Positions 2,752 through 40,787 are shown, counted from the first letter of the stretch. The stretch is DNA of 64,000 nucleotides from Myxococcaceae bacterium (GCA_028287085.1 JAQBQI010000114.1:6755-70754), one strand, 5' to 3'. The notes: a model not told the origin generated them from the sequence alone. Numbers and translations: made by a program.

Positions 2752-2964
2752 ATGAGCACCGGCACGACCCCATCATTCATCACTCCGATCCTCAAACATG
2801 CAGTTCGCCCCATTCCCGTCACGAAATCGCCGTTTGTGTACGACGAGCAGATGGGACTCAGTCGCTGGTTCGACGGCGACATTGGAGAGCCGGCGGCGCT
2901 ACGTCCCGAGTGCGCCGTGTGGCTGAAAACGAAGGTGGGGCACCCGGGCGGCGGTGAGGACTAA
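2752..2964 (+). CDS. Small ORF (70 aa), candidate precursor peptide of the ATP-grasp maturase
   Basis: It sits directly upstream of the ATP-grasp gene, and its stop overlaps that gene's start (gacTAATGtcg). The C-terminal half is rich in Thr/Ser/Lys and Asp/Glu (..VTKSPFVYDEQMGLSRWFDGDIGE..WLKTKVGHPGGGED), the residue classes cross-linked in graspetides. Confidence 0.35.
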   Translation: MSTGTTPSFITPILKHAVRPIPVTKSPFVYDEQMGLSRWFDGDIGEPAALRPECAVWLKTKVGHPGGGED

Positions 2965-5040: not shown

Positions 5041-5259
5041 ATGAGCCTCTACAGCATGGATCTCCGGGAACGCGTGGTCGCAGCCCATCAGGCCGGCGAA
5101 GGCTCGATCCGCGAGTTGGCGGACGTGTTCCACGTGGCCAAGAACACGATCGAGAACTGGCTCCGCCGGCTGCGTGAGACAGGCAACGTCGCGCCCCTCC
5201 CGCACGGAGGCGGGGTGGCTGCGACGATCCGAGGCGAGCGACTCGACACCCTCTGTTGA
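5041..5259 (+). pseudogene. IS630-family transposase N-terminal HTH remnant
   Basis: MSLYSMDLRERVVAAHQAGEGSIRELADVFHVAKNTIENWLRRLRETGNVAPLPHGGG is the typical IS630 orfA start. It is truncated after 72 aa. Homology-like text (..ELVGAL..) continues only in other frames up to ~5350. Confidence 0.6.
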
Positions 5260-5399
5260 TTGGTCGGCGAGCGCGACGCGAGGTGCTCTCTCGTGAACTG
5301 GTTGGGGCGCTCCGCGCAGCGCCTCATGGAGGGGCGAACGTAGCTATCGACAGGGGCGTTCGTTGCCTATACGATCATGGGCATGAGGTTGGGGGCGCG

Positions 5400-19524: not shown

Positions 19525-19527
19525 CCG

Positions 19528-22035: not shown

Positions 22036-22061
22036 CGGTAGCTCCGCTGCCGGGTCTCGCG

Positions 22062-23276: not shown

Positions 23277-23278
23277 GG

Positions 23279-24548: not shown

Positions 24549-26561
24549 TCAGCGTAGCGTCAGCTCGTCCGGCTCGTCAGCCCGACCGAGACGCGAGACG
24601 AGCAGCTCGTGCGGTCTCTTCCGTTCGGTGTCGACGAGCGCCTGGCCGTGGTCGACCCGCGACGCGAGCCACCGCGAGCGCCAGAATTCGGCGACCGCCT
24701 CGACGCCGTCGTCCCCGACCACCCGTGGCACTCGGGGGCTGACCCCCAGCAGAACGCGGCGCACACACTCGATGAGGGGTGCCACGTAGACGATCCTCGG
24801 CGAGCCGTGCTGGATGAGGTCGGCGTCAGAGAGGTTCAGAGCCACCGTCGCTTCCCGCAGCTCCCTCAGCTTCGCGCTCTGACCCTCGCCGAAGACGAAG
24901 TTCACGTTGCGGACGTCGCGGCGCTCCGCGGCGACCTCTGCAAGCACCTCCTCCGCCTCGACACTCAGATTCGTGGATCCGTGGCCGAGGCTCCGTCCCA
25001 CCTCCCGGAAGCCGAGCGGCGACGGCTGCTCCGCGAGCGTTCCCGCGGGGACCTTCACCCGGTTGTACTGCGAGGACCGCTCAGGGTAGAGGCTCGTCGT
25101 CGTGACCATCGCCAGCTCCGGCGAGCGTACCAGGGGGCGGCCGGCCATCTGGCTTGCGATCACGCTCGGCTCGTTCTGGTAGGCCTCCTTCACCGCGTCG
25201 CGGACGAAGGGTGTGAGCATCAGCATGCACGCCAGCTTCCCCGCCAGGAGCGGACCGTAGGGGGGAACGGCGCCGCAGGTCGCGATGTCCATGACCGAGG
25301 CCGCTGCGAAGTGCTGCTTGACCTGCCGGAGCGCGAGCGCCATCGCGTTCTTCGCGCGGGCGTCGAGTACGGCGTCTCGGAGTGGTGCGCGCATCGCCGC
25401 GAGCTCGTGATCCAACCTCAAGAGGATGCGCGCCGTGTTCGCGCGCTTCGCGCGGAAGAGCGGGGTACGCGCTGCGGCGATGAGCGCCGCGTGGTCGAAG
25501 GCGACCTTTCGGTCGACGGCGCTCGTGCGAAGCCCCTCCAGACGGGCCGCCTGAGCCACCTCCGCGATAGATCCCAGGTGTGCATCGAGCGCCGCGTCGC
25601 GGCGAGGCGGCGAGGCGCCATCGAAGCCGAGATCCTCCGTGTAGAGGTTGGCGAGGTCCTCGCGGACCCGTCGGCGCAGGGCGTCGAGGACCTCGTCGTC
25701 CGTGACCTCGCCCTGCTCGATCAGCGCGAGCAGTCCGTGGACGGTCCAGCCGATCCACTCGTCGCGGGCCGTCAGCTGAAGGACCGCGCTGCTGAGCGCG
25801 GTGATCGCCATGATCGGATGAAACGGCCGCGACGCGTCGCGGATCAGGAACGCGATGTGTCGGCCGGGCGGCCTGCGGTAGCGGCTGCTCCACGTGTATC
25901 GGAAATAGCGCCAGACGTGGAAGAGGTTGAGCCCGGTGTATGGATCGCGCGCGTTGGAGGTGGCGATCTGGATGTAGGGGCAGCACACCTTGCGCAGCGC
26001 TTCAGGGCGGGTCGCACGAGGCATCTCTGCGATCACCCGGAGGTCGTCCGCGATGCGCTTCCCGTCGGCGATCAAGTGGAGGACTGACTTGTGCCTCGCA
26101 CCACGCGACGGTCGCTCGATCTTCTCCACGAACCGCTGCACCGACTCAGATTGGAGCTGGTCGTCGCGCCCGTGCAGCAGCTGGCGGCGGACGAGTTGCT
26201 TCGCGGGCGTCGCGCCTCGTTGGTGGGGCCGCACCGAGATCGCGTCGCGGTGGACCCGCACGTGCCAGCCGAGATGGATCAGGTCGCGCAGGATCAGGAG
26301 CGATGCGAGGTACCGCTTCGGCATCGGGTCCGTGGCGCGCACGGTGCTGATCTCGTCGTCGAGCGAGGTGAGCCGCTCCACCTCGCTGCGGTTTCGAAGC
26401 AGCTCGGCGAGCCGCGACGTCGGTCGTTCCACCTCGACCTTCGGCGTGAACGGCCGCCAGCCGTCGCCCTCGTCTTCGGGTGGAGCGGCGACGTCCTCGT
26501 CGTCGGTCTCAATGGCTGCGTCCTGCACCGGCGCGTTCCTAGACCGGCGGGCCGTTGGCAC
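24549..26561 (-). CDS. DUF4338-like (DruA-like) protein, 670 aa; last gene of module X
   Basis: Blocks FHVWRYFRYTWSSRYRRPPGRHIAFLIRDASRPFHPIMAITALSSAVLQLTARDEWIGWT, CGAVPPYGPLLAGKLACML and TTTSLYPERSSQYNRV fit my recollection of the DUF4338 pattern (..RD.WIGW..). It is a clear paralog of the 35634-37739 product. Confidence 0.7.
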   Translation of the reverse strand: MPTARRSRNAPVQDAAIETDDEDVAAPPEDEGDGWRPFTPKVEVERPTSRLAELLRNRSEVERLTSLDDEISTVRATDPMPKRYLASLLILRDLIHLGWHVRVHRDAISVRPHQRGATPAKQLVRRQLLHGRDDQLQSESVQRFVEKIERPSRGARHKSVLHLIADGKRIADDLRVIAEMPRATRPEALRKVCCPYIQIATSNARDPYTGLNLFHVWRYFRYTWSSRYRRPPGRHIAFLIRDASRPFHPIMAITALSSAVLQLTARDEWIGWTVHGLLALIEQGEVTDDEVLDALRRRVREDLANLYTEDLGFDGASPPRRDAALDAHLGSIAEVAQAARLEGLRTSAVDRKVAFDHAALIAAARTPLFRAKRANTARILLRLDHELAAMRAPLRDAVLDARAKNAMALALRQVKQHFAAASVMDIATCGAVPPYGPLLAGKLACMLMLTPFVRDAVKEAYQNEPSVIASQMAGRPLVRSPELAMVTTTSLYPERSSQYNRVKVPAGTLAEQPSPLGFREVGRSLGHGSTNLSVEAEEVLAEVAAERRDVRNVNFVFGEGQSAKLRELREATVALNLSDADLIQHGSPRIVYVAPLIECVRRVLLGVSPRVPRVVGDDGVEAVAEFWRSRWLASRVDHGQALVDTERKRPHELLVSRLGRADEPDELTLR

Positions 26562-26582: not shown

Positions 26583-27668
26583 TCAGGGAGCGAGGGGCAG
26601 TCGTCTCCGCCCGTCTGTCTGTCGCACGGGGCAGATGCGGGTCAGGGCGCCTGGGCAGCGTCGGCATGCGTCCACCCCCTTGTGCATGCAGTCACCCGGC
26701 ATCGCGCGGCGGTTCGAAGCGCTCATGAAGAGGTACATGGCCTGTTGAACGACGCGGGGGTTGTTGCGCCGGAGTCCGCGCCGCAGCGAGGCGAGGTCGA
26801 TGCGCTCCGCGAGCCCCCGCACGAACGCGCGGCGGGCCTCGTACGATCGCGGCCCGCGGTAGGCGAGCGCCGTGAGGAAGAGGTCGACGTTGCTGTCGAT
26901 CACGATGAAGTGCCGCCAGTCCACGTCCGACCACACGGGGACGCCGGGGGTCATGTCGGGGTTGCTCACGATCGAGAGGAACATCGCCGCGATCTTCTCG
27001 CTGATGCGCCACGCCCGGGAGAGCGCCGCGACCAACGCCCGTGCGCGCGCGGCGCGCCCGCGAGTGCCCGCGCGAACGAGCGCGAGCAGCTCGGCGAGGT
27101 CGCGCGCGCCGCCCTCCCGCACCACGAGCGCCACGGACGTCGGCACCTTCCCGAAGTGCCCGTAGCGCCGCATGAGCACCGTGTGCCGCTTGAGGTGACA
27201 CTCGACCTCGGGGTTGGCGCCGCAGATCCCGCGCTTCGTGAGCGCGTGCTTCGTCAGGTCGCAGCGCACGCGCAGGGTCTCCGTGGTGCGCATGTGCTCG
27301 CAGCGCCCCTCATCCACCAGGGCGAGCAGGGGAGCCGACGCGCCGAGCTCGCCGGCGTCCTCGCGCGTCATGGAGCGGAGGATGCGGGTGATCTGGTTGT
27401 CCTGGCGGCGCTGGAACATCGTGACGGCCACGAGCAGCCGGAAGAGCGCCTCGCCGTCGTGCGCGACCAGCGCCTCGCGCGACACCGCGAACGCGCCAAC
27501 GCGTTTCGGGTTGCAGAACACCTGCGCCGTGCCCTGGTCGTCGGGCGAGCTGTGGTGCGTCGCAAGGTACCAGCGCACCGCTGCGCGGGCGACCTCCACC
27601 TGGCGTGACGTCGGGGTCGGCGCTGGGGCGCCGGCCCCGCCAGGAGCGTGGGTTCGGGGCGCCGTCAC
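26583..27668 (-). CDS. Endonuclease III/HhH-GPD-superfamily-like protein with a C-terminal 4-Cys (Fe-S type) loop
   Basis: There is an HhH-like segment WRISEKIAAMFLSIV followed by FIVIDSNVDLFLTAL (compare GIG.KTA..FL and VDTH..RV in Nth/MutY). The C-terminal cluster is CMHKGVDACRRCPGALTRIC. The proposed start is GTG 27668 in a GTGA overlap with the upstream stop; the ORF is open up to 27749. Confidence 0.45.
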   Translation of the reverse strand: MTAPRTHAPGGAGAPAPTPTSRQVEVARAAVRWYLATHHSSPDDQGTAQVFCNPKRVGAFAVSREALVAHDGEALFRLLVAVTMFQRRQDNQITRILRSMTREDAGELGASAPLLALVDEGRCEHMRTTETLRVRCDLTKHALTKRGICGANPEVECHLKRHTVLMRRYGHFGKVPTSVALVVREGGARDLAELLALVRAGTRGRAARARALVAALSRAWRISEKIAAMFLSIVSNPDMTPGVPVWSDVDWRHFIVIDSNVDLFLTALAYRGPRSYEARRAFVRGLAERIDLASLRRGLRRNNPRVVQQAMYLFMSASNRRAMPGDCMHKGVDACRRCPGALTRICPVRQTDGRRRLPLAP

Positions 27669-30600
27669 GTCGCGATGAGGTCCTTGAACGCGAGGTCGCG
27701 CACGGTGACGAGCCGATCGCGACATCCCTCGGTCGAGAGACCGCGGCACAGGCTGGTGTGCTTCGGCAGCGCGCCGATCTTCGCGGCGATGTTCACCGCT
27801 TCGTCGCGAGTGTTGAGGGAGAACAGCGACGAGAGGCTCTTCCGGTCGACGTTTGCCATCTGGTGGAGGATCCAGGTGCCGATGCTCGCCTTCAGTTCCT
27901 CGCCGCCCTGATCGAAGTGCGAGAGGAACTGCGTGGAGAGGATCACGCCGCAGCCGAACGACCGACCCTGCTGCAGGATGTATCGGAGGCTCTCGATGTT
28001 GAGGCTCAGGAAGTCGTCGGCCTCGTCGACGAGGATCATGCGACGGAGTTGGCGCAGCTCCTTACCGGGTGCCTCCCCGGGCGCGAGAGGCGCCTCCGCG
28101 CCTTGGAGCATCTGCCGGTAGAACGCGTTCATGAAGAACGCGATGATCGCGCGGATGGTCGGCCTCATGCCCGCGAGTGGTTGGAGGTCGATGACGTTGA
28201 TGCCGTCGAAGAGCGCGCCGATGTCGGCCTCCGGCGCCTCCTCGGCGAACACCCCGAGGTCGACGAGTTCGCTAAGCAGCGACTGCGGAGAGCCGGCGGC
28301 GAGGTCGCGCTTTGTGAGGAGATCGAGGAGGTCCTTGATGGTCGGGAAGGGCCTCGTGAAGGTCTTCGGGTCAGCGGCGTCGATGCCGGCGTCGGCGAGG
28401 CACGCCTGCACGCCCTTGACGATCTGATCGCGCTGCACGCGGCCGATGCGGGGCTCGATCGCGAGCAGCGTGTCCGCGAACGAGTACACCATCCGCGTGA
28501 GGTCCTGCCTGTTCTGCGGGGCGCTGGGGCGGAGCGGGTTCAGCGGCAGGCCCTCGGGCGGCAACACTGTCGCGCCGATCCGCCGCGGGAAGTCGTCGCG
28601 GGTATTGAGGCCGTAGTCGCCCTTGTAGTCGAACACGAGCACCCCGGGCGGCTTGCCTCCGGGGTTGAACTCCGCTTGTCCGACGAGCTGCGCGATCAGA
28701 GACTTCGTGAGCTGCGTCTTGCCGGTACCCATCGTGCCCGTGATCCCCACGTTGTAGTGGTTCACTCGGTCGACGCGGTTTGGTGTCCAGATCGCTGGGG
28801 TCATAGCGCCGGGTTGCAGGACGTCGCCGATGCGGACGACGATCCCCTCGTCGCTTCGGCGCGACGCGCCGGGCTTAGGCTGCGCTGGCGGCGTTCCGTC
28901 CTGTACGGGCGGAGTGTTCGCGGCCGAGGGCGCTGCGGTCGGCGCTGCGGCCGGCAGGGGAGGATCGACCGCACGCGCGGCCGTCGACGCGAGCGGAGCG
29001 GTCGTCGTAGGCGGCTGAGTGCGGGTTACGCCACCGCTCGCGACCGCGCGCGGCTCGGCGGGGCCCTGCGACGGCCCGGCACCCTGCGGCTTGCGCCGGA
29101 CTCGCGGAGTCGGGCCACCGAGGTCGAGGGGAGGCATGATGAAGAAGCGCACCAACACGGCTTCGCCCGGGACCGGCTCACCCTGAACGTCGAGCATGGG
29201 GTGCGACTCCTCGAAGCGCGTGTCTTCGGTCCACGGGGCTTCGGGGACGATCCAGCACTCGACGACGAGGGGCGGGCACTCGCGCTCCTGAAGCCGTCGG
29301 TCGAAGTCGGTGAGCACGGCGCGCCACTCTGACGCGAGCCGCTGCCTGCTCGCCTCCATCCAGGCGACGCGCTGGAGGGCTGTCTTCGGCTCCGCGTTCG
29401 CGGGTGCGGCGAAGCAGGCGCGCACTCGCGCGGCGGCGACCCGCGCCTGCGTCGACAAGTGCTCCCGCGCGGCCGGTGTCGCGAAGGTCGCGTTCTTCTG
29501 GCGCGCCTTCAACTCGACGACGCGCAGGGGCCCGAGCGCGGCGCGGTCGCGGTCCGCGGCCTCGACGAGGACGAGGTCGGCCCGGGAGCGGTCGACGTTG
29601 AAGTGCCGCTGAACCGCGCGCGCCCAGCGGTGCCCCTCGGGACAATCGAGGCTGAGCGGCAGCGTGGGGTTCGCGTCGCCCGCCCGGGCCTCCACGAACG
29701 CGCGGGTCAGCGCGATCTGTCCGCGGAGGTGGCGCTCGTCGAGCCCCTCGAGGAGGTCCGCCAGCAACGAGCGGCACGAGTACAGCGACAGCACCGCCGC
29801 GCGCATTCGCTCGACGTTGAGCCCCTTCGCGCTCGTCGTCACCCGCTCAAGTGCGGCGCCGAGGTCCCGGCGGAGCGCGCCGCCATCGCAGATCACCGCC
29901 GCGACGTGGCCGTCGACCTCGCCGTAGCTCACGAGGCTCGTGTCCGCGGTCGGCTTCACAGGCCAGCCGCCGCGGGCGACCAGGGCGCGTACGATGGCCC
30001 CCCCGATGTCAGCCGGGCGCGTCGACGGGTCGAGCCCGGTTGGCTTGCGGGCGAGATCGAGCCCGTCCAGGAGGGCGTCGTACGAGTCGAGCGATGACAC
30101 GCCTCGCACGCAGATCGCGGCGACGTTGCCGTTCGGGCCGGGCACGTACGAGAGCGGCAGGCCTCCGCCCCTCCCTCCCGTGTCCTCGGCCAGCCGGGCG
30201 TACGGCGTGTCGACCGCATGGATCGCGAGGTGGCAGAGTTCGTCGTCCGCGAGCTCCGTGGCGCGCCGGGGGAGGCCGAGGCTGACCCCGTCGCCGCGCG
30301 TCGCCTCGAGGGCTTCCCGCGCCGTCACCGAGAGGTCGGCCGGGTCCGGCCGCCGCCACGCCTCGGCGCGTTTCGCGTCGGTGAATGTCGCGCGCACTTC
30401 GAGGTGCAGCCCCTCGCCGACGTCGGCGTCGTCCTCGAAGCGACGCCGCGCTTCGACGCAGAGCGCGTCGATCGCCGCCGTCGCGTCCGGTAGGTCGACG
30501 AGCTCGACGGAAACGGACGAGGCGAGGCGTCTCGGGGCAAGCATCGCCCACAGCGCTCCGAGCCCCTGCCGGACCGCGAGCGCGACGCCGCGCGCAGACG

Positions 30601-32362
30601 GCCACGCGCGTGTCGACAGGGCGTAGACGTCCGCGATGTTGTCCGGAAGCAGCGTCTGGGGGTGGTCGTAGACCAGCGCGAGGCGCGGCGGCATCGCGGG
30701 CGGCTCGACTCCGTTCTTCAACCACAGGAGCGCCCTGACGACGCGGAAGGGGTGGAGAGGGAGGAGGCGCGCCGCGGTCGCGGTGGCACCCTCCGCGGCG
30801 AAGGCGAGGTCGAGGTTCGCGAGCCACTCGACCACCCGCTGCGACGGCGCCCCGCTCGGGTACACGGCGTTGATGAGCGATTGGTACGCGTCGACATAGG
30901 CCGACGCGCGATCCGGCAGCCGCCCTACGACGACGAGGGGGTGCGCGTCGAGCAGTGCAAGCGCGAGCATGACCCCCGCCTCGGGCCCGGACTCGCCCTC
31001 GCCGAGCGTCGCGTCCGGCTCGGACTGCATCATCCCGATCGTCGCGCTCACGAGGTCCGCGCGGGCGGCCAGGAAGCGATCAATCGGGTTTCGCAGCGCG
31101 GCGAGGTGCGCGGCCTCGGTCTCGATCCCGCTGTCGCGCCCGCGGAGCTTGGCGGTCGGAATGCGCCGCGTCGCCCTCAGTTGTGCGGTGTCGGACACCT
31201 CAATGCAGTCGCCGAAGCGGACCTGCCGAATCAGGAGTTCGGGGTCCTTGGAGGACAGCAGCGCGCGCAGCAGTCCGCGGGGCGTCGCCGGGCGCAGGAC
31301 GACTGAGACGCCGCCGTCGGTCTCCACGGAGAACGTCGGGTCGTCGTCGTCGGCCTCGCCGAGTTCGCCGGCGACTCGTCCGCTCTGGAAGGCATCGGGG
31401 AGGTCGTCGAGGAGAGCCTCGTCGGTGTACCCCTCCGAGCGGGGCTCCTCGCCTTCGTCGCCTCCGGGCTCCTCGCCTTCGTCCGCGGGCAGTGCCAGCG
31501 CTCGCTCGCCGGCGCGGAGGAGACGAGCGAACTCCACGGTGATCCCGCAGAGCTCGCCGGCATCCTCGGAGACGCCGGTAGCGAACTTGTAGGCGGCGTG
31601 CGCGAGTCGGGCCGCCTCCTTGATGGGGTCGTCGACGTCGGGCAGCAGCGCGCCGGCCAACGTCCGCTCCACGGCTGCGGTCTCCTCGCCGCTCAACGCG
31701 CTCAGCCGCTGCATCACGCGCTTGATCGCCCCCGCCGCCTTAACGCCGCGGAGCAGGTCGAGCTCACGTGCCGGCGTCGGCCCGGGGAGCGCTTTCGGCT
31801 GCCGCGCCGGGACGAGCCCCAGTAGCGGCAGCGCTCGCGCCTCGCTCGTGCTGCGCGCGAGCTCCGCGTATCGCGCGAGCGTGGTCACGCTCGTGTCCGC
31901 GACGCGCGTCCGCACCAGCCGGGCCCTGCGCGACGCGAGGTCCGCGAGCATCTGCCAGCCCGCGGACGCGGCGTACGCCTCCGCCACCTTCTCGGGCGTC
32001 ACCTCGGTGAGCACGTTCAGGCCCGCCTCCCCGGGCGTGGAGTCGGTGTTGAGGTACACGAGGAAGCCGATCGTCTCGCCCTCTTCCGCGCGCGCGTTCC
32101 GGAGGCGGGTGGCCTCCGCGGCCGCGGCGTGCGGTTCGAGCACGATCACCTGCGGCGGCAGCTCGACGCCGGGGCGCTTCGAAGATCCAATGATGAAGCG
32201 GGCACCGCTGCATCGCGGCTCGCGCGCCAGCTCGACCGCGGCGCGCACGCATTCGTCGAGGTGATCCTCGGTCGGAAACGCATGCGAGCGCAGACCGAAG
32301 TCGGTCGCGCGGAGCTCGTCGACGCAGACCTTGAGCGCGCGGAAGATGACGTCTTCGATCAT
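27665..32362 (-). CDS. Giant protein (1565 aa), DptH/DndH-like: N-terminal unknown domains, PD-(D/E)xK-like segment, Pro/Ala-rich linker, C-terminal HerA/FtsK-type ATPase
   Basis: Walker A is NVGITGTMGTGKTQL (28721-28750). Walker B is RRMILVDEADDF. Then GCGVILSTQF. A possible nuclease motif is RADLVLVEAAD..LRVVELKAR. The start forms an ATGA overlap with the upstream gene. Its size and its position after a P-loop protein and a ~470-aa protein match DptH. Confidence 0.75.
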   Translation of the reverse strand: MIEDVIFRALKVCVDELRATDFGLRSHAFPTEDHLDECVRAAVELAREPRCSGARFIIGSSKRPGVELPPQVIVLEPHAAAAEATRLRNARAEEGETIGFLVYLNTDSTPGEAGLNVLTEVTPEKVAEAYAASAGWQMLADLASRRARLVRTRVADTSVTTLARYAELARSTSEARALPLLGLVPARQPKALPGPTPARELDLLRGVKAAGAIKRVMQRLSALSGEETAAVERTLAGALLPDVDDPIKEAARLAHAAYKFATGVSEDAGELCGITVEFARLLRAGERALALPADEGEEPGGDEGEEPRSEGYTDEALLDDLPDAFQSGRVAGELGEADDDDPTFSVETDGGVSVVLRPATPRGLLRALLSSKDPELLIRQVRFGDCIEVSDTAQLRATRRIPTAKLRGRDSGIETEAAHLAALRNPIDRFLAARADLVSATIGMMQSEPDATLGEGESGPEAGVMLALALLDAHPLVVVGRLPDRASAYVDAYQSLINAVYPSGAPSQRVVEWLANLDLAFAAEGATATAARLLPLHPFRVVRALLWLKNGVEPPAMPPRLALVYDHPQTLLPDNIADVYALSTRAWPSARGVALAVRQGLGALWAMLAPRRLASSVSVELVDLPDATAAIDALCVEARRRFEDDADVGEGLHLEVRATFTDAKRAEAWRRPDPADLSVTAREALEATRGDGVSLGLPRRATELADDELCHLAIHAVDTPYARLAEDTGGRGGGLPLSYVPGPNGNVAAICVRGVSSLDSYDALLDGLDLARKPTGLDPSTRPADIGGAIVRALVARGGWPVKPTADTSLVSYGEVDGHVAAVICDGGALRRDLGAALERVTTSAKGLNVERMRAAVLSLYSCRSLLADLLEGLDERHLRGQIALTRAFVEARAGDANPTLPLSLDCPEGHRWARAVQRHFNVDRSRADLVLVEAADRDRAALGPLRVVELKARQKNATFATPAAREHLSTQARVAAARVRACFAAPANAEPKTALQRVAWMEASRQRLASEWRAVLTDFDRRLQERECPPLVVECWIVPEAPWTEDTRFEESHPMLDVQGEPVPGEAVLVRFFIMPPLDLGGPTPRVRRKPQGAGPSQGPAEPRAVASGGVTRTQPPTTTAPLASTAARAVDPPLPAAAPTAAPSAANTPPVQDGTPPAQPKPGASRRSDEGIVVRIGDVLQPGAMTPAIWTPNRVDRVNHYNVGITGTMGTGKTQLTKSLIAQLVGQAEFNPGGKPPGVLVFDYKGDYGLNTRDDFPRRIGATVLPPEGLPLNPLRPSAPQNRQDLTRMVYSFADTLLAIEPRIGRVQRDQIVKGVQACLADAGIDAADPKTFTRPFPTIKDLLDLLTKRDLAAGSPQSLLSELVDLGVFAEEAPEADIGALFDGINVIDLQPLAGMRPTIRAIIAFFMNAFYRQMLQGAEAPLAPGEAPGKELRQLRRMILVDEADDFLSLNIESLRYILQQGRSFGCGVILSTQFLSHFDQGGEELKASIGTWILHQMANVDRKSLSSLFSLNTRDEAVNIAAKIGALPKHTSLCRGLSTEGCRDRLVTVRDLAFKDLIAT

Positions 32363-33768
32363 TGGAGGCCCCCGTCGACCAGCACGACGTTGTCCGACTC
32401 CCGGCGCGCCAGTCCGAGCGTGACGAGGTGCTCGCGGTTAGCGCGGCCGACCTCGCGCAGCGTCGACGCCACGCCCCCGATCCCGAGGCGCCGCTCCGTG
32501 TCGTGCTCGTTCGGCCCCCCAAGCACGAGCCCCAGGCCCTCCGCCCGCGCGGCGAACTCGGGCCAGGGGACCGCGTGGCCGGGGTCGACGAGCGCGTGCG
32601 TGAGCGTCACGAGTTGACGCGGGCCCGGCTTGAAGTAGCGCTTGGCCCCGCCGCGCGCGTCGAGCGGGAACAGCCACCCGCCTGCAGCGCCCAGGTGGAG
32701 CGCGTGCGTGCTCGGCGAGTAGCGGTTGGCGTCGCCCCCTTTCTTGAGCGTCAGCCGCTCCTCCGCCGCGGTGTTGAGCGCGGCGCACGCGCGCTGCAGC
32801 GACTCCTGCGCGCGGGAGACCGCCTGCGCCATCGACGCCGCCTGGTCCGGCGGGCTCACGCAGAGCAGCAGCCGCCCCTCTCCCGCGTCGGGCCGCCAGC
32901 GCAGCAGCCGGACGCAGAGTACCAGGGTGGCGAGGTCGATCATCGCGGTGAGCGTCTCCGACTTCGACGCGCCGAAGCGGTGCCACTCGATCAACCGGCG
33001 CGCGAGCGTGCCGACCGTTTTGGACCACTGCGCCCAGCCGTCGCCGCTCGGCACCGGGAACGCCCCGACGAACTCGTCGGGCGAAAGCGGAGGGGCGGGC
33101 GATGTCGCCGAGCCGATGCCGAGCGCCACGGCGAGCGCAGAGTGCGGGTCATCGCTGCTGCAAGCGAGGTCGTAGAGGCCCGCGAGCGCGCGACAGCCGT
33201 CGGGCGTCGCGCTGAGCATGCCGAGGAATGTCGGCGCGTGCATTCCGCCGAGGGTGTGAGGGTCGTTGAATCCCACGAACGCGAGGCCGGGCGTCGTCGG
33301 GTCTGCAGCCCCGGAGACGGCCACCTTCCCGTCAGCGTTGAGGGCCGCAGCAACTGTGGCGTGCATGGCCGGGGTCAGCGCAAATCCTTCCTCGCTCGCG
33401 AAGTGGTCGCGCACGTGCGCCCGCCCGCGCTTCAGGAACTTCGGGTCGGCGGCGTGCGGTGGCGCGTCCAGGCGCAGTGGGCCGTCCTTCGTGCGCGTGA
33501 CGCAGAGAGCGCGCGCCTCGTCGCTAAGTTTCCAAGCCCCGGCGCCGAAGCGAGCGTCGAGCGCCTGCTTCACGGCGCCGACGTACGCCCGCAACGGCTG
33601 GTCCGTCGCGAGAAGGTGCGCCCACGGTGGGGCCGCGCCCGGCAGCAACCGGAGGAGTTGCATGACGCCGTTCGCGATGTGCACCGCGCGCACGTTGGAC
33701 GTCTGCACGAAGATCCCCCACGCGTCGTACTGCAACTTCTCCGGGGTCGCCCCGCCCTCACTCGCCAT
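32359..33768 (-). CDS. Hypothetical protein (469 aa), DptG/DndG-like by position and size
   Basis: It overlaps both neighbours (11 nt and 4 nt). It is a paralog of 39339-40787. The shared layout is a hydrophobic helix block, then ..LLLCVSPPDQ.. versus ..LVLALSPEQE.., then C-terminal ..GLARRESDNVVLVDGG versus ..GVARRLPDSGAEVGG. Confidence 0.65.
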   Translation of the reverse strand: MASEGGATPEKLQYDAWGIFVQTSNVRAVHIANGVMQLLRLLPGAAPPWAHLLATDQPLRAYVGAVKQALDARFGAGAWKLSDEARALCVTRTKDGPLRLDAPPHAADPKFLKRGRAHVRDHFASEEGFALTPAMHATVAAALNADGKVAVSGAADPTTPGLAFVGFNDPHTLGGMHAPTFLGMLSATPDGCRALAGLYDLACSSDDPHSALAVALGIGSATSPAPPLSPDEFVGAFPVPSGDGWAQWSKTVGTLARRLIEWHRFGASKSETLTAMIDLATLVLCVRLLRWRPDAGEGRLLLCVSPPDQAASMAQAVSRAQESLQRACAALNTAAEERLTLKKGGDANRYSPSTHALHLGAAGGWLFPLDARGGAKRYFKPGPRQLVTLTHALVDPGHAVPWPEFAARAEGLGLVLGGPNEHDTERRLGIGGVASTLREVGRANREHLVTLGLARRESDNVVLVDGGLQ

Positions 33769-35386
33769 CGGCGTTCTCCCATCGCACGCGAGTCTTGTTG
33801 CCGCTGCTCAGTTCGTCCGCCTGCACGGACAGCGGCGTCTGGTCGCCCGGGCGGGCGATCCGCACGCCGTCGCCGTGGGACACCGAGGGCGCTCGCGAGA
33901 GCCAACGCCGGAGCGTCAGCGCCTCGGACGGAGTGAGGTCGCCGCGCGCCCGCGCGTCGTCGTCGTAGAGCGCGCGGAAGAGGCGCGGCGTGACGCGAAG
34001 GGCGTCGTGCGCCGGCGCCGCGCCCGGCCGCTCAAAGCGGAGCCAGACGTACGGGGCGCGCCACACACCCTTGAGCGCCTCCGCCCCCGAGGGGTGGCAC
34101 CGAGGCAGCGCGATGCGGAGCGCGGCCGTGTCGACCGCGGTGCTCGCCACCGACGCGGCGCCCCCCTCCGCGCCCTGGTCGGTGCGCGCGCGGAGAGAGT
34201 CGTAGCAGAGCGTCTGCCACGCGGGGAACCACGTCCCAGCGCGCCACAGTTGGAGGGTCGCGTACACGCCGTCGAGGAGTTTCTTCGTAATGGCGCGCAT
34301 GTCGCCGACCCACCCCTCCGGCCGCTCCTGGAGGCGGTGCAACAGTTGGGCGTACGAGTCGTTGCTCGCCGCAGGTTGCAGCGCGGGGTCGTGCACCACG
34401 AGGGAGCGGACGACCGCCGCCCCCTCCCACTCGAAGGTCGGGTCGTCGGAGAGCGCTGCCAATCCGGGGAGGGCGCGCGCCCGCTGGGGGGCGGCGCCGA
34501 GGAGGACCTCTCGGCAGATGTGAGGGTGCGGGACGAGCGCTGGGTCGACCGCGGCGAGCGCGACGTCGAACTCTGCGGAGGCCCCTTTGTAATCGAAGAG
34601 GCGGGCGCCGACGGCGTCTCGGATCGACGGCGGTTCCGCGGAGTTCGCGCCGCGGCCGCCCGTGATGAGGAAGGCGATCAGCGACCACAGGTGGCGCATC
34701 GTGAGGTGCCCACCGCGCGACGCGACCTCCCCAAGGACGCGCTCGATCCAGCGCCGCACGTGGGGCGTGCGCAGTGCCTCCAGCGCGCACTCCGCGCACG
34801 CCCGCGCCCCGGGCGAAGTCCCCGAGAGGTCGACCGCGAGCGCCTTGTCGATCATCGCGTTGATTATCGATGGTGTGGAGGAGTCCAGCAGGCCGAGGTC
34901 CACGACGGCGACCTCGCCCGCAACGGCGTCGTCCCAGCGCGCGCGGAGTTGCGACTGCTCGACGGCGACGCGGACCAACCGCGCGAGGTCGTCGCCGCCG
35001 TCGCGCACCTGCGCGTGGAGGCGCTCCAACTGCCCGCGGTTAATCGCGAGGAGCAGGCGCTCGCCGCGCGCGAGCGCGGCCCGCAGATCGCCCGCGAGCG
35101 CCACGACGGGGTCTGCGCTCGCCGAGCGCGAGAGCGCCGCGGAGGCGTCGTAGATCGGGCGCAGGTTGCGGAGGTTCGCGGCGAGTACCGCGAAGGTCTT
35201 CCCGTCGCCCGCGTTGCCGGTCAGCACGACGTGCCGCGGGGCGACATCCGCATCGACCCGCTCGATGAAGCGCGCGAGCGGCGTCTCGACTCGTAGGGCC
35301 TCCCGGTGCGTCCGCGAGAGGTTCTCGACGACCGAGGCGTGCCCCCGATAGAGGTCAATCAGCAACTGGTACGTGAACGCTGTCAT
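33758..35386 (-). CDS. P-loop NTPase (542 aa), DptF/DndF-like; first gene of module X
   Basis: The N-terminus is MTAFTYQLLIDLYRG..RHVVLTGNAGDGKTF, with Walker A at ~35190-35230. It is a paralog of 37736-39346. Confidence 0.75.
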   Translation of the reverse strand: MTAFTYQLLIDLYRGHASVVENLSRTHREALRVETPLARFIERVDADVAPRHVVLTGNAGDGKTFAVLAANLRNLRPIYDASAALSRSASADPVVALAGDLRAALARGERLLLAINRGQLERLHAQVRDGGDDLARLVRVAVEQSQLRARWDDAVAGEVAVVDLGLLDSSTPSIINAMIDKALAVDLSGTSPGARACAECALEALRTPHVRRWIERVLGEVASRGGHLTMRHLWSLIAFLITGGRGANSAEPPSIRDAVGARLFDYKGASAEFDVALAAVDPALVPHPHICREVLLGAAPQRARALPGLAALSDDPTFEWEGAAVVRSLVVHDPALQPAASNDSYAQLLHRLQERPEGWVGDMRAITKKLLDGVYATLQLWRAGTWFPAWQTLCYDSLRARTDQGAEGGAASVASTAVDTAALRIALPRCHPSGAEALKGVWRAPYVWLRFERPGAAPAHDALRVTPRLFRALYDDDARARGDLTPSEALTLRRWLSRAPSVSHGDGVRIARPGDQTPLSVQADELSSGNKTRVRWENADGE

Positions 35387-35394
35387 CGGTGGCG

Positions 35395-35417
35395 CCCGCT
35401 CCCGCTCCCGCTCCCGC
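35395..35417. repeat. Tandem hexamer (CCCGCT)x3.8 immediately upstream of the module X start codon
   Basis: The sequence reads cccgct cccgct cccgct cccgc. On the minus strand this is GGGAGC repeats, that is, three consecutive GGAG Shine-Dalgarno-like motifs 9-30 nt upstream of ATG 35386. Confidence 0.8.
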
Positions 35418-35451
35418 GATTTCTCTTGCCAACAGTGGCCGGGCAGCTACC

Positions 35452-35474
35452 ATCGCCGATTCGCAGAGACTAGA
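35452..35474. promoter_or_regulatory. Palindrome in the divergent intergenic region (candidate operator)
   Basis: CGCAGAGA (35452-35459), the 7-nt spacer ctagagt, then TCTCTGCG (35467-35474). The arms are perfect 8-bp inverted repeats, located between the two divergent operons. Confidence 0.4.
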
Positions 35475-35633
35475 GTTCTCTGCGGGGACGGGTGCGCATT
35501 GTTCGCCGAAACCGTTGATTTTAGCGGTAGATCCACACACATCCCGGTCCAGGTCCGCGGACATAGGCTGACCAGGACTGTTCTTGAGATCGCGCGCGCC
35601 CTCCATCGCGGGGACTGGGATCGCGCGCGACGG

Positions 35634-37739
35634 ATGCAGCGCGCGCTCTCGGAGATCCTCGAGAGCGCGGAGGGCGAGCACGAGGAAGCCCGAGGCGAGA
35701 TCTACGCGTCGACCCTCCGCGCGAAGGCGCTTGGCACGGTGCTCGTCGACCTCGCGACGAGCGGGTGGCACATCAGCGTCGACGAAGGCAAGGTCTACGT
35801 CAGCGCCCCCTTGTGGTCCGCCGGCGCTTCCGGGCTCTCGCCCGAGGAGGTGCGCGCGGAGAAGGAGCGCGCGCGCGGGGCGATGCAGGCGCGGGTCCAA
35901 GACGAGATCGAGTCGGAGTCGACGCGCAGATTCATCCTCGACATGGAGCGCGCGGTGCGTGTGGAGGGCGGGGTGCGCTCGATCCGCTCTCTCCTCGCCG
36001 ACGGACCCTCGCTCGCGGCCGCCCTCCAGGAGCGCAGCGCTGAGGCGATCCGGCCCTACCTCCAGGTGGCCGACGGGGCCGCGGGGCGCGACCCGGAGAC
36101 GGGCCTGCGCCTCACTGACGTCTTCCGCTACATGAAGCTGTTCTGGTCCTTTCCGATGAAGTCGCCGCCGGGGAGGACGACGCCGTTCCTCGTTCGCGAC
36201 GCGGGGCAGCCGGGGCACCCGGTCTGCGGGCTGATCGCGATCGCGAGCCCGGTCCCTCGCCTCACGCCGCGAGACGCGGCGCTCGGCTGGACGCCCGCCT
36301 GGTTGGAGGCCGTCGTCCGCGCCCTGCAGTTCTCCGCTGCCGACCCGGCGCTGCAGGTCAGCGCCGTGCTGGCCCAGGCGCACGTCAGCGAGCGCGGAGG
36401 TCTCGACCCGTCGTCGCTCGTCGAGGACCTCTGCGCGCTGCTGCGCTTGCCGACGAGCCGCGCCCTTGAGGGCCTCGTCTCGGAGCTTCGAGCGCTCAGC
36501 GCCAAGGCGTGTCGCGAGCGCGCCGACGCGGCGCTCGGGGCCATCCTGAGCGACCTCCGCGGGGAGGTGGTCGATGCGCTCGGTGCGATCTCGTTCAAGG
36601 GCCTTGGCGTCAGCCGCGTCGATGCGCTGGCGAACCCCGCGGAGTCCGCCTCACGCATCGAGGCCATGAAGGCGGGGGCGTACAAACGCTGGCACGACTC
36701 CCGGCGCGTCGGCGCGGTGCGGACCCCGAACAAGCGGATCGACAAGGGCGCCGTCGAGGCGGCCCGGACGATGCGCGACGCCGAGCACGACCCGCTCTAC
36801 ATGAAGAAGCGCGTCACGCAGGCCGCGGCGCTCTTGCGGGCCTGGGAGGGGATCGCCCCGCGTGAGGGCGAGGTCAGTGCCGAGCGCCTGTTTGAACTCG
36901 CGCTCGGCCCCTCGCCCCGCGCGTCGCACCGGCTCTCGGGCGGCAACGGCGTCGCGCGCGGCCTCCGCGCCGCCTTGCTCCAGCGGCAGAACCGTTTCGT
37001 CGCGGCGCAGGTCGCCGACGTCTGCGTCTGCGGCGCGGTCCCCCCGTACGGGCCGCTGCTCGGGGGAAAACTGGCCGCTCTCATCGCGCTATCGCGCGAC
37101 GTCGCGGGCGCGTACCACGAGCGCTACGACGGCAAGGCCTCGGAGATCACCTCGCAGATGGCGGCGCGGCCCGTGAGCCGCCCCGCGGACCTGCTCGCGC
37201 TCACGACGACGAGCTTCTACGGCGTCGGGTCTTCGCAGTACGAGCGCCTCGCGCTGACCGCCGCGGGCGGCGACGTGCGGTGGAGGTTCGTCGGGTACAG
37301 CCGCGGCCACGGCACGCTTCACTTCTCCGCCGAGACCGTCGAGGCCATAGACCGCCTGCTGCAACTCGAGACGGGGCGTCGGCTCATCACGAGCCGCTTC
37401 GGCGAGGGTCCGTCCGAGCGCCTGCGCAAGATTCGCGACGGCCTCGAGCGGCTCGGCGTGAACCCCAACGTACTGCTCCAGCACGGGATGTGGCGGCTGG
37501 TGTACGTCGCGGAGCTCGCGCCCTCGGCGTGCCGCCCTGGGGGGCGCGGGGACGCCCCGCCGTGGCGCGCCGCGGGCCCATCCGTGGACGAGGTCGCGCG
37601 GCAGTGGCGCGCGCGCTGGTTGGGCCGTCGGCTCGCGAGCGCGCCCGCGTTGGTCGACGAGGTCGCGCGCTTCTCGCGCGACGACGCGATGATTGGCAAC
37701 CGCTTGCGGCGCGAGCCGCAGAGGGTGGGGAGATCTTGA
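35634..37739 (+). CDS. DUF4338-like (DruA-like) protein (~701 aa); first gene of module Y
   Basis: Blocks DVFRYMKLFWSFPMKSPPGRTTPFLVRDAGQPGHPVCGLIAIASPVPRLTPRDAALGWT, CGAVPPYGPLLGGKLAALI and TTTSFYGVGSSQYERL are present. The start is uncertain: the first ATG in frame is 35634, and the ORF is open from 35373. Confidence 0.7.
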   Translation: MQRALSEILESAEGEHEEARGEIYASTLRAKALGTVLVDLATSGWHISVDEGKVYVSAPLWSAGASGLSPEEVRAEKERARGAMQARVQDEIESESTRRFILDMERAVRVEGGVRSIRSLLADGPSLAAALQERSAEAIRPYLQVADGAAGRDPETGLRLTDVFRYMKLFWSFPMKSPPGRTTPFLVRDAGQPGHPVCGLIAIASPVPRLTPRDAALGWTPAWLEAVVRALQFSAADPALQVSAVLAQAHVSERGGLDPSSLVEDLCALLRLPTSRALEGLVSELRALSAKACRERADAALGAILSDLRGEVVDALGAISFKGLGVSRVDALANPAESASRIEAMKAGAYKRWHDSRRVGAVRTPNKRIDKGAVEAARTMRDAEHDPLYMKKRVTQAAALLRAWEGIAPREGEVSAERLFELALGPSPRASHRLSGGNGVARGLRAALLQRQNRFVAAQVADVCVCGAVPPYGPLLGGKLAALIALSRDVAGAYHERYDGKASEITSQMAARPVSRPADLLALTTTSFYGVGSSQYERLALTAAGGDVRWRFVGYSRGHGTLHFSAETVEAIDRLLQLETGRRLITSRFGEGPSERLRKIRDGLERLGVNPNVLLQHGMWRLVYVAELAPSACRPGGRGDAPPWRAAGPSVDEVARQWRARWLGRRLASAPALVDEVARFSRDDAMIGNRLRREPQRVGRS

Positions 37740-39346
37740 GCTACGACCTGCTGCTGAGCCTGTACTACGCGGACGCCTCGAACGCGGACCTCACTACCCA
37801 GGAGGAGCGCGAGCTCCTGCACGTGCGCACGCCCGTCGAGGGGCGCATCACGGCGGCGATCCGGGACGGCTTCGACGTCGTCCTCACCGGCAACCCCGGA
37901 GACGGCAAGTCGCACCTCGTCCGCACGCTCGGCGAGCGCGGCGATCTCGTCGGCGCGGAGGTGCTCCTCGACCTCTCCGCCATCCCGACGGGCGACGCGA
38001 TCGCCCGGTGGAAGGCGTGCCGCGCCGCCAAGCGAAGGTTCGTCATGTGCGCGAACGAGGGGCCCCTGCGCTCGTTCAACGAGGTCGCGAGCGCGGACGA
38101 GGCGCTGAACGCCTCCGCCTGGGAGCTCCGCCAGCAGCTCGCGCACCGCGTCGAGTCCGGCGAGGTGCCGACCAGGCCGGCCCGCGCGCTGCTCATCAAC
38201 CTCGCGGACCGAAACGTCTTGAGCGAGCCCCTGATCGCGGACGCGGTCGCGCGGGTGTGTCGCGACGCGTTCGTGCCCGACGTCGGCGTGTTCTCTGCGG
38301 AGTGCTCCGCAGCGCGGAACATGTTGCTCCTCCAACAGGACGCCCCCCGGCGGCGCTTCGCGCAGCTGCTCGCGCTGGCAGGCACGCGCCGCGGCGAGCA
38401 CGTGACGTTCCGCCGGCTCTGGCAGGCGATCTCGCTCGGCGTGACGGGCGGTAGGACGGTCGCGAAGCTGAAGGACGAGTCGAAGAACGACGCGGACGGG
38501 CCGCTCGGCGCGTCGCCCATCGACAACCTCGCCCGTCGTGCGGGGCGCGGCGTGCTTGTCGAGGCCGTGCGCCGGTTCGCGGACCCCGCGTGTTTCACCG
38601 ACCCCGACCTCGACGAGAGCCTCTGGCACACGGGGGCGCCGCCTAGCGGCGAATGGCTCTGCGAGGAGCCGAGCGCGGAGCACCCCGCGACGATGTGGGC
38701 GATGGGTCGCCGCGACGACGCGATCGACCAACTCAAGCGCTTGAAGCGCCTCGTCGCGCTGGCGCATGAGCGCGGCGACGAGCTGGTGCGGGCGATGACG
38801 CGCGCGACGGCGCGCCCGAGCGCGGTCGAGCCGCGCGCCCTCCTCGACGTCTCCCTCAGGGGGATCCGCCGGCTCTACTTGTCGCAGAGGGAGGACGCGA
38901 ACGCGCCGGAGTGGCTGCGCAGCGGGCTCCCGCTGTGGGTCGGATTCAGCTACGAGCAGGCGCCCGTCGAAGAGCGCCCCCATGTCGCGGTCGTTTCGCT
39001 CCCCGAGGACGAGTTCGAGCTCGTCCAGCCGACGCGCCCGGAGTGGCTCGGCGACGCGCTCGGGCCGCTCCCCGAGCGTGCGTGGCTGCGGCATAGGCGG
39101 TCCTCGACCCTGCTCCGCATCGATCCCGAGATGCTCGCGGCTCTGAAGGCGGCGACGGAGAGCTCGGGGCCACTGCCGATACCGGAGCCCGTCCACCGCT
39201 TCCTCGCGCAGCTCGCGGGCTGGGATGAGCTCCACGGCGAGCGGCCCCTCGGCGACGAGGCGTTCGCGGTGCTCTCGCGCCCGCGCGGCGAGCTCGAGGT
39301 CGACGGTCGCGTGCGGCTGCGCGTGGAAGGGGCGAGCTATGTCTAA
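37736..39346 (+). CDS. P-loop NTPase (536 aa), DptF/DndF-like; module Y
   Basis: A TTG start forms a TTGA overlap with the upstream stop. The N-terminus is (M)SYDLLLSLYYAD..FDVVLTGNPGDGKSH, with Walker A at 37885-37914. It aligns by eye to the start of the 33758-35386 product. Confidence 0.7.
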   Translation: MSYDLLLSLYYADASNADLTTQEERELLHVRTPVEGRITAAIRDGFDVVLTGNPGDGKSHLVRTLGERGDLVGAEVLLDLSAIPTGDAIARWKACRAAKRRFVMCANEGPLRSFNEVASADEALNASAWELRQQLAHRVESGEVPTRPARALLINLADRNVLSEPLIADAVARVCRDAFVPDVGVFSAECSAARNMLLLQQDAPRRRFAQLLALAGTRRGEHVTFRRLWQAISLGVTGGRTVAKLKDESKNDADGPLGASPIDNLARRAGRGVLVEAVRRFADPACFTDPDLDESLWHTGAPPSGEWLCEEPSAEHPATMWAMGRRDDAIDQLKRLKRLVALAHERGDELVRAMTRATARPSAVEPRALLDVSLRGIRRLYLSQREDANAPEWLRSGLPLWVGFSYEQAPVEERPHVAVVSLPEDEFELVQPTRPEWLGDALGPLPERAWLRHRRSSTLLRIDPEMLAALKAATESSGPLPIPEPVHRFLAQLAGWDELHGERPLGDEAFAVLSRPRGELEVDGRVRLRVEGASYV

Positions 39347-40787
39347 CCGCAGGAAGGTGGAGTACGCGAGCCTGCAGCGCGTGCTCATGACGGCCGAGGG
39401 GGACAAGCCGGGGGTGTTCGAGGAGCTGCTCGGGTTCCGGCCGTCCACTGCGAGCTTCAAGGGCGTGCACCTGATGAACGACCTCGCGCAGACGGTCCTC
39501 GGGGGCGCTCCTGCGCACGGCGGGAACTTCCTCTGCAAGGTCATCCGCCCTGACGCGGACGCGGCGGAACGCACCGGCGAGGCCGCCATGCGGAAGGACA
39601 AGGAGTTCAGCGCGCCGTTCGGTCGGGCCTTCCCGAAGGAGCTCGGTCCCAAGCGCGTGCGCGCGCTGCGATGCGCGGCGCAGCTCGTGACGAACTTCGA
39701 CGGGGGTCTCTACAAGGCCGGCGACAGCATGGCGAGCGGGCTCGTGACGCACAGGTCCCTGCTGGGGTTCGAGGGGTTTCGGCGCCTCAAGATCGGCCAG
39801 TACCTCGCGCAGACGCTCGCGGAGGACGGCCGCGCACGGCTCCGGTCGCTCTTCGTCGAGGACGGCGACCCGATCACTCGGGCGCTGCGCCCCCTGCTGC
39901 TCGATGCGCCGCTGGTCGACAAGGTCGCGCGGGCGGACCTGCCCGCCCCGGCCGCGTTCGACCTCGCGCTCGGACGGGGGCTCTCGACGCTGCTGGGCCA
40001 AGGGCTCAGCAAGCCCGTCGCGCTCCGCCTGCTCGCCCTCGCGGCGAGCCTGGGCGTGATCTTGAAGGTCATCGGCGTCGGCCGGGAGGGCGGCCGCCCC
40101 CTCGTGCTCGCGCTCTCGCCCGAGCAGGAGGGCCCGGTGATGTTGCTCCGAGAGGAGGCCGTGATCTCCCTCGAGCGCGGCTTCGAGGAGTTCTACGGCG
40201 CCGTCGCGGCGCGCCTGCCAGCGCACCCGGAAGGCCCCGGGATTTGGCAGCGCTCGAAGTCGGGCGGCCTTGAGTTCGAGGTGACGGGCGGCCTGCCCCT
40301 CGAGGAGGTCGCGGTAGAGATCCTCAACGCGGCGCGGAAGCTCGCCTTCAAGTCGAAGGGCGACGACGCGCAGGACGCCGCGGACGGCGCCGGGCAGACC
40401 GAGCGCGCGATCTACTGGCCCGAGCGCTTCGTCTACGGGCTCGGCCGCAGGACCGGGTGCGTGCTCCCGCGCGGGAACAAGGCGGGATGGGGCAAGCGTC
40501 TTGCGCTGACGCCAGAGCACGTCGAGGCGCTGGTGCTCATGGTCGTGCCCCGCGGCGAGACGATGCTGTGGAAGGACTTCTGGCGCGTCGTGCGGGACCG
40601 CTTCGGCGTCGTGGTCGGGGCGAACGCGTCCGCCGACGCGCGCGAGCTGCGCCAATCGGGCGTACCCCACCTCAACGTGCAGCACCTCGCTGCGAACGCG
40701 GACGCGCTCCTGGCACAGGCCGTCCGACGCGGCGTCGCGCGGCGCCTCCCTGACAGCGGCGCCGAGGTCGGAGGGACCCTCTCATGA
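39339..40787 (+). CDS. Hypothetical protein (482 aa), DptG/DndG-like by position; module Y
   Basis: ATG 39339 overlaps the upstream stop by 8 nt, and the 3' end forms an ATGA overlap with the next gene. It is a paralog of 32359-33768. Confidence 0.65.
   Translation: MSNRRKVEYASLQRVLMTAEGDKPGVFEELLGFRPSTASFKGVHLMNDLAQTVLGGAPAHGGNFLCKVIRPDADAAERTGEAAMRKDKEFSAPFGRAFPKELGPKRVRALRCAAQLVTNFDGGLYKAGDSMASGLVTHRSLLGFEGFRRLKIGQYLAQTLAEDGRARLRSLFVEDGDPITRALRPLLLDAPLVDKVARADLPAPAAFDLALGRGLSTLLGQGLSKPVALRLLALAASLGVILKVIGVGREGGRPLVLALSPEQEGPVMLLREEAVISLERGFEEFYGAVAARLPAHPEGPGIWQRSKSGGLEFEVTGGLPLEEVAVEILNAARKLAFKSKGDDAQDAADGAGQTERAIYWPERFVYGLGRRTGCVLPRGNKAGWGKRLALTPEHVEALVLMVVPRGETMLWKDFWRVVRDRFGVVVGANASADARELRQSGVPHLNVQHLAANADALLAQAVRRGVARRLPDSGAEVGGTLS

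Follow-up and report, generated by a model that had tools for sequence, protein, structure and literature searches.

A 361-residue protein encoded within a 64,000-nt stretch of Myxococcaceae bacterium DNA (GCA_028287085.1 JAQBQI010000114.1:6755-70754; hereafter the window) is very probably an iron-sulfur (Fe-S) HhH-GPD enzyme resembling Nth and MutY, with a predicted metal cluster. We refer to this Nth/MutY-like protein as X. X is a dedicated part of a phage-defence system built around DruA and not a housekeeping repair enzyme. We consider it probable that X serves as the dedicated base-excision and apurinic/apyrimidinic (AP) lyase component of this DruA-centred defence, making abasic sites or nicks on foreign DNA.

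The window is DNA of a Myxococcaceae metagenome-assembled genome (MAG), with a GC content of 0.70-0.73. An open reading frame (ORF) scan placed the X gene on the minus strand at 26583..27668, and the same 361-residue product is present in the NCBI annotation of the source MAG (P0001; identity and coverage both 100%). The GTG start of X (27668-27666) overlaps the TGA of the gene for a giant protein (27667-27665). This is the GTGA-coupled start of a 361-residue protein that was described in an initial annotation made from the sequence alone. That annotation also placed X directly upstream of a DUF4338 gene and only in the minus-strand module. Both statements hold: the gene for DruA (DUF4338; 670 residues; minus strand, 24549..26561; PADLOC DruA1 E 2e-131, Pfam DruA) begins 21 nt past X, and searches of the whole window with tblastn and with a hidden Markov model (HMM) of the X family found a single copy of X and none in the divergent plus-strand module described below.

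We compared the X family with Nth by profile-profile alignment. The E. coli Nth sequence was verified against 2ABK, and Nth profiles were made from 3 sequences (E. coli Nth and two EndoIII from PDB alignments) or from 83 (with 80 genomic Nth genes added). hhalign matched the X family to these profiles with probabilities of 89.6% and 85.4% and P values of 1.9e-6 and 5.8e-6, compared to P 0.66 for a reversed-profile control. The alignment runs through the three motifs singled out in the initial annotation, all of which we located on the minus strand within X. In the helix-hairpin-helix (HhH) segment (residues 216-231, 26976..27023; residues 220-231 are WRISEKIAAMFL), the invariant K225 (codon at 26994-26996) pairs with the Schiff-base lysine of Nth, K120, so that RVxxKIA, i.e. 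RV(S/G)xK(I/L)A, is set against GVGRKTA. In the VIDSN motif (residues 256-260), D258 (codon at 26895..26897, within VIDSNV) pairs with the catalytic D138 of Nth (VDTHI), VVIDSNV being set against IAVDTHI. At the C terminus, the cysteines of the C327-x7-C335-x2-C338-x7-C346 loop (26631..26690) pair with C187/C194/C197/C203 of the Nth [4Fe-4S] loop. Relaxing the alignment threshold lengthened the match to Nth residues 14-211 and paired LFRLLVAxxMFQRRQD with the PFELLIAVLLSAQATD helix.

Conservation was read from 30 family members that are 23-67% identical to the window protein. Q86, D90, C123, C136, C149, C157, K225, D258, P304, C338, and C346 are invariant in all 30, and C327 and C335 nearly so, with the spacing of the C-terminal cysteines varying as x4-7/x2/x5-7. 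The initial annotation had left the catalytic residues to be checked; the equivalents of both, K225 and D258, are thus present and invariant. By this comparison, X bears the bifunctional Lys/Asp signature of HhH-GPD glycosylase/lyases, and since the HhH lysine and the catalytic aspartate are both kept, X is most likely a glycosylase-lyase. Compared to Nth, X also has three novel conserved features: an RYGxFGK motif, 15 additional residues that form a loop between Lys and Asp, and a second four-Cys (Cys4) site, C123/C136/C149/C157 (C-x12-C-x12-C-x7-C; minus strand, 27198..27302). The insertion that holds this second site includes a predicted beta-hairpin; Nth has no such insertion.

An AlphaFold2 model of X, made from a 34-sequence alignment, was helical nearly throughout (predicted local distance difference test score, pLDDT, 90.1; predicted template modelling score, pTM, 0.89). 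In a Foldseek search of the PDB with this model, ranks 1-26 were all OGG1 or an OGG-like queuine-salvage enzyme (QNG1), with MutY and MagIII lower in the list (probability up to 0.99, E at least 0.05, TM 0.3-0.55). In BFVD, a viral Endonuclease III ranked first, with a probability of 1.00, an E of 0.011, and a target TM of 0.62. X thus has the two-domain, all-helical fold of the HhH-GPD glycosylases. When an HMMER profile of X was searched against PDB sequences, human NTHL1 was among the best five at a nonsignificant E of about 4; the NTHL1 segments that matched, the Asp motif and the Cys loop, were collinear with X. HhH-GPD (PF00730) was the sole Pfam family matched by more than one X member (2/30, E at least 0.074). 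Because the thresholds of PF00730 and of the NCBIfam Nth models were not reached, X appears to be a distant relative within the HhH-GPD superfamily that lies outside the curated Nth family. The resemblance to Nth/MutY glycosylases that the initial annotation had proposed is thus upheld by profile-profile alignment, Foldseek, and residue alignment alike, and the profile and fold comparisons that it had named as a possible refutation found HhH-GPD similarity.

If the HhH likeness were a coincidence and the Cys loop instead belonged to some unrelated fold as a zinc ribbon, one would expect what single-sequence and HMMER searches gave, which is no significant match of X to any glycosylase. We consider this very improbable, as the alignment of X with Nth is collinear over three independent landmarks (P 2-6e-6 compared to 0.66 when reversed), and HhH-GPD enzymes come first in independent fold searches of two libraries.

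We found more than 540 relatives of X, none of which is named. Since only 207 of 1.84 billion 50%-identity cluster representatives match at E <= 0.001, X seems to define a compact, orphan family that lacks annotation. Its members come mainly from Myxococcota and metagenomes. tblastn of X against plasmids and phages gave zero matches, and a scan of viral contigs for Nth relatives found zero. A match of X to RSC8 was short and repeat-inflated and was thrown out. Current defence-finding model sets miss the family.

The gene neighbourhoods of these relatives tie X to DruA. Linkage was counted over the eight contexts of at least 20 kb, the window included, and DruA was no more than four genes (about 7 kb) from X in 8/8. 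In Myxococcus virescens, the order is HATPase - DruA - X - ... - DruE; on a metagenome contig, X is beside HATPase - DruA - a 954-residue protein - a DruD-size protein - DruE; and in Polyangium, the order is DruE - SNF2 - ... - PDDEXK - X - DruA. Other relatives carry X with a trio of DndF-, DndG-, and DndH-like genes (F, G, and H). In Plesiocystis, a DruA::F fusion - G - H - X adjoins a DruE-like gene. Metagenome contigs L091 and L092 have DruA::F - SspG-like - H - a 359-residue protein - X, beside DruB-C-D-E, while on metagenome contig L095, DruA::F - G - H - X forms a self-contained cassette. A close relative of the window has an identical gene order. X therefore occurs in two settings, either in a cassette with DndG-like and DndH-like genes and DruA, the last as a free protein or a DndF fusion, or beside DruA in a type I Druantia operon (DruA-E). 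From these neighbourhoods, it follows that X tracks DruA whether the DndFGH-like trio is present or not: the constant partner of X is DruA, often accompanied by DruB-E, and not the trio. The initial annotation had instead treated X as part of a Dnd-type module, an assignment that we replace with DruA and Druantia type I. The combination of X with a trio whose H protein bears the ATPase is nevertheless a recurrent cassette and not a one-off.

The DruA::DndF fusions are 1185-1263 residues long (L001 390-3947; L091 18411-21059; L095 135-3809), whereas in the window, DruA and the DndF-like protein each have a gene of their own, one at either end of the cassette. We considered the 359-residue gene beside X in L091 as a possible X paralogue, which comparison ruled out. 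A GHKL-type HATPase_c protein (about 520-535 residues) is encoded directly before DruA in X-bearing Druantia I operons (L003/L004 of Myxococcus virescens and the metagenome contig) and may be another undescribed Druantia accessory. At L090 2-3571, a distant X relative (about 30% identity) is encoded divergently from an adjacent HmaA-like SNF2 helicase (PADLOC E 4e-151), and the X family may also serve Hma-type systems.

These contexts bear on whether X could be an ordinary base-excision-repair paralogue that lies in the island by chance, as its place within a repair-enzyme superfamily might suggest. This is extremely unlikely: X falls under the threshold of every Nth, MutY, and HhH-GPD model, the family is small (207 representatives at the above cutoff), DruA is nearby in every one of the eight long contexts, and the start of X is coupled to the DndH-like gene.

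We propose that X would interrogate incoming DNA for a foreign base state, which could be a phage-type modified base or a missing host mark. X would flip the base from duplex DNA, cleave its N-glycosidic bond, and nick the strand by beta-elimination via a Lys225 Schiff base, such that an abasic site or nick would take the place of the flagged base. Either lesion could then act as a damage or loading site for DndH, with its restriction endonuclease (REase)-like motif and HerA/FtsK translocase, and for the DruE helicase. We infer this hand-over of lesions from X to DndH and DruE, as we do the activity, substrate, and metal content of X.

Several points weigh against a base-excision role for X in defence. 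Type I Druantia of E. coli (DruABCDE) works without any known X-like gene; X would thus be an accessory and not a core part. X has no match in Pfam, NCBIfam, or PADLOC (none at E <= 0.01 in Pfam or NCBIfam), and a phmmer search of PDB sequences with X gave nothing significant. The Foldseek support is weak, with E at least 0.01 and TM of only 0.3-0.6. The Lys and the Asp are 33 residues apart in X compared to 18 in Nth, a wider spacing that is due to the conserved 15-residue loop. Distant X relatives are also found in other contexts, for example beside an HmaA-like helicase. Lastly, by analogy, HhH-fold defence domains can be dead sensors (END) or DNA-modifying transferases (AADT), and each of these precedents suggests a different role for X.

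Following the first precedent, X could be a non-catalytic reader, its glycosylase fold serving solely to flip and recognise bases, modified or unmodified, and thereby directing or licensing the neighbouring nuclease-motor proteins. In END nucleases, a dead EndoIII domain fused to a phospholipase D (PLD) nuclease senses hypermodified DNA; the sensing domain is EndoIII/OGG1-like (PMC12191111). What X shares with them is the pairing of an EndoIII/OGG1-like module with a nuclease in defence; in every case, X is accompanied by genes for large nucleases or motor proteins that could do the cutting. However, the END module is part of a fusion and has lost its catalytic residues, whereas X is a separate protein in which the Lys and Asp equivalents are kept and are invariant throughout the family. 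As this invariance would be hard to explain without catalysis, we regard a reader role as unlikely.

Following the second precedent, X could be a base-modifying transferase like aGPT-Pplase/AADT that places a host "self" mark together with GNAT-like DruA. AADT, like X, has an HhH glycosylase-like fold, which acts on bases in polymeric DNA, and the second-best BFVD match of X was an AADT-domain protein (probability 0.92), with aGPT-Pplase also listed. The partner of AADT is a P-loop kinase, joined in phage PaMx11 by an acetyltransferase and an FAD enzyme (PMC8989533); X is accompanied by the P-loop DndF-like protein and by GNAT-like DruA. Moreover, type I Druantia, which lacks a methylase domain, is reported to yield a sequence-specific "m6A" signal in single-molecule real-time (SMRT) sequencing (preprint 10.1101/2024.04.14.589459). 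We nonetheless find a transferase rather improbable. Both fold searches place X closer to EndoIII than to AADT, with the structural match to AADT the weaker one, and the alignment of X with Nth takes in Lys, Asp, and Fe-S loop alike. The chemistry of AADT is substitution at 5-hydroxymethyldeoxyuridine (5-hmdU), not excision. ThyX, whose gene neighbours DruA in the window, is not conserved beside DruA in the close relative. The E. coli system behind the SMRT signal is also not known to have an X gene, which counts against this explanation.

A related reading, which we likewise hold to be improbable, makes X and GNAT-like DruA the epigenetic module that type I Druantia and the related DruA-DndFGH cassettes have so far lacked; the pair would write a non-methyl base mark on host DNA or excise unmarked bases. 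If true, it would explain self marking by a system without a methyltransferase domain, and the system would act by base excision as a "restriction glycosylase" that works with HerA/FtsK and YprA-type motors. The initial annotation had also raised base-exchange chemistry, which none of our tests supports.

The likeness of X to Nth and MutY, on which our preferred base-excision reading builds, thus extends to a helical fold overall, an HhH with the nucleophilic Lys, the catalytic Asp in a V-D-(T/S)-(H/N)-V motif, an N-terminal "LLxAxxxxQxxD" helix, and a C-terminal four-Cys loop. X differs from Nth in being about 150 residues longer, with an insertion that carries the second Cys4 site and the RYGxFGK motif, and in its C-terminal Cys spacing (x7/x2/x7 compared to x6/x2/x5). 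In addition, X is encoded in defence operons, while Nth is a housekeeping gene.

The initial annotation held a glycosylase-fold protein to be unusual for Dnd-type restriction modules; the principle is less unusual than that, since phage defence is already known to employ HhH glycosylases as well as EndoIII domains that have been inactivated. Besides END, the preprint on Dag proteins (10.1101/2025.10.29.685425) describes Dag1 as a bifunctional Lys/Asp HhH glycosylase that destroys modified phage DNA and so defends against phages that carry it. Like X, the HhH proteins described there (Dag1, Dag2, and integron families) are unrecognisable by sequence and lie in defence loci. The Dag proteins were tested singly in that study, and the text searched mentions no Fe-S cluster, whereas X always belongs to a multi-gene system with DruA and has two Cys4 sites. 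Our literature search found no paper on the X family, nor one that reports a glycosylase-like protein as part of Druantia I or DndFGH. What is already known is a glycosylase fold in defence; the X family, its second Cys4 site, and its obligate pairing with DruA within Druantia I and DndFGH-like systems are new.

With respect to Druantia type I, DruA, DruD, and DruE are present in the window at strong scores, and X of the relatives lies inside or beside DruA-B-C-D-E operons. The differences are that the published gene set of Druantia type I has no glycosylase-like gene and that DruA of the window is duplicated and joined to DndFGH-like trios. The position of X beside druA suggests base excision as part of Druantia action, and the tie between X and DruA offers a concrete, testable entry point to the poorly understood type I Druantia. 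The finding also links Druantia, DndFGH-type HerA/FtsK modules, and defence glycosylases, which are usually treated apart.

The minus-strand ORFs of the window are tightly packed, in the order 542, 469, 1565, 361 (X), and 670 (DruA) residues. The 1565-residue giant is DndH-like (27665..32362, minus strand; ORF scan and PADLOC), and we found only 7 relatives of it, none named. Its C-terminal HerA/FtsK-type ATPase (residues 1188-1563; 27674..28801; PADLOC DndH and Pfam) contains the Walker motifs quoted in the initial annotation: Walker A, GITGTMGTGKTQ, at residues 1206-1217 (28712-28747) and Walker B, MILVDEADDF, at residues 1442-1451 (28010-28039). Seven PADLOC DndH models match residues 1167-1563, each by its C-terminal 360 positions (best match E 3e-78, HMM positions 1323-1686 of 1686), and no PADLOC DndH model aligned to residues 1-1166, where a DndH would carry its inactive SF2, beta-sandwich, TRD, and inactive methylase domains. 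Pfam matches on the ATPase are TrwB_AAD_bind and DUF87. The HerA/FtsK ATPase is the constant C-terminal domain of DndH and is preceded by an REase domain (Rakesh, Aravind and Krishnan, PMC10853773). Thus, although the ATPase is, as the initial annotation implied, the sole one of DndH type in the window, its family matches show it to be a canonical DndH domain and not an addition peculiar to the minus-strand module. Since DndH constantly ends in this ATPase, it is the ATPase-less giant of the plus strand that is the deviant copy.

A Pro/Ala/Thr/Gly-rich linker (about residues 1080-1172; 28847..29125, minus strand) separates the ATPase from the nuclease-like region. The initial annotation had predicted this Pro/Ala/Thr-rich linker correctly and had overestimated its length, which is about 95-110 residues and not ~120. 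Within the nuclease-like region, a D929...E950-L-K952 motif (29507..29578, minus strand), invariant in the 7 homologues, is REase-like and may represent a PD-(D/E)xK motif. A model of the N-terminal 1074 residues of the giant, built from 7 sequences, reached a pLDDT of 61, and its Foldseek matches were meaningless.

The other members of the trio were less readily recognised. The 469-residue protein (32359..33768, minus strand) is assigned to the DndG/SspG position by its location and has no family match in Pfam, PADLOC, or NCBIfam; its positional equivalent in L091 matches SspG (E 4e-12). The 542-residue P-loop protein (GNAGDGKT; 33758..35386, minus strand) is DndF/SspF-like (PADLOC SspF E 1e-7), with weak SspF matches that are confined to the P-loop region. 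The cassette resembles DndFGH/SspFGH in its order of a P-loop F, a G, and a giant H and in the canonical DndH ATPase of H. It differs in that G is without a match and that, over its first ~1170 residues, H is matched by none of the DndH models. No dnd or ssp modification genes were found among the window ORFs scanned.

Family scans revealed a second, divergent module on the plus strand (35373..43903) that encodes a DruA paralogue, a DndF-like protein, an SspG-like protein, and a 1039-residue giant. The second DruA heads this module (PADLOC E 2e-106). The two modules run apart from about 35.37 kb, where their longest ORFs overlap. By BLASTP, the two DruA copies are clearly related (33% identity) and the two F proteins weakly so (27%, E 2e-7), while no similarity was detected between the G proteins or the H proteins. 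The 1039-residue giant has no Walker A motif and no ATPase family match, and it contains a Lys/Gly-rich low-complexity stretch (GGKGGKGGKGAPEKKGKKG).

The rest of type I Druantia was found by family scans on the plus strand at 5256..17957. It consists of a 981-residue protein with the size and position of DruB/C and no family match (5256-8201), DruD (8192-9268; E 7e-73), DruE, a large DUF1998/MZB helicase (9115-15303; DruE1, 1808 bits), and a NERD/UvrD helicase (15303-17957). DruD and DruE are thus encoded on the other strand, about 9 kb from the presumed DruA. In a related metagenomic locus, the 981-residue protein has a 954-residue equivalent, and DruB and DruC are recognised as separate genes in L091. 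As for DruA itself, the Dnd literature considers DUF4338 to be a GNAT-like domain, in some cases as a fusion with DndF; the paper that gives this description mentions neither a glycosylase nor Druantia.

Between the Druantia genes and DruA is a block of lower GC content (0.62-0.64; 18478-24214, minus strand) that forms a tightly packed operon, with gaps of 3, 27, and 4 nt. It encodes a bona fide ThyX (TIGR02170, E 8e-55) that is extended at its C terminus, an SPPY DNA methyltransferase (mad2-like), an 835-residue protein that combines a Ser/Thr kinase with an ORC/CDC6-like ATPase, and a CARF6-like protein of 348 residues. A thymidylate synthase is odd within a defence-type operon. We rejected ThyX as a member of the X-DruA system because of the 335-nt gap, the lower-GC block, and its absence from beside DruA in the close relative. 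The Druantia genes are preceded by a gene for an ATP-grasp protein (2964-3959) that has an MvdD-type pre-ATP-grasp domain and is probably part of a peptide-modification locus unrelated to them. A gene for a tyrosine recombinase (phage integrase; 45636-46679, minus strand) marks the edge of the high-GC defence block and suggests present or past mobility of the island; an integrase is also found near the cassette in L095.

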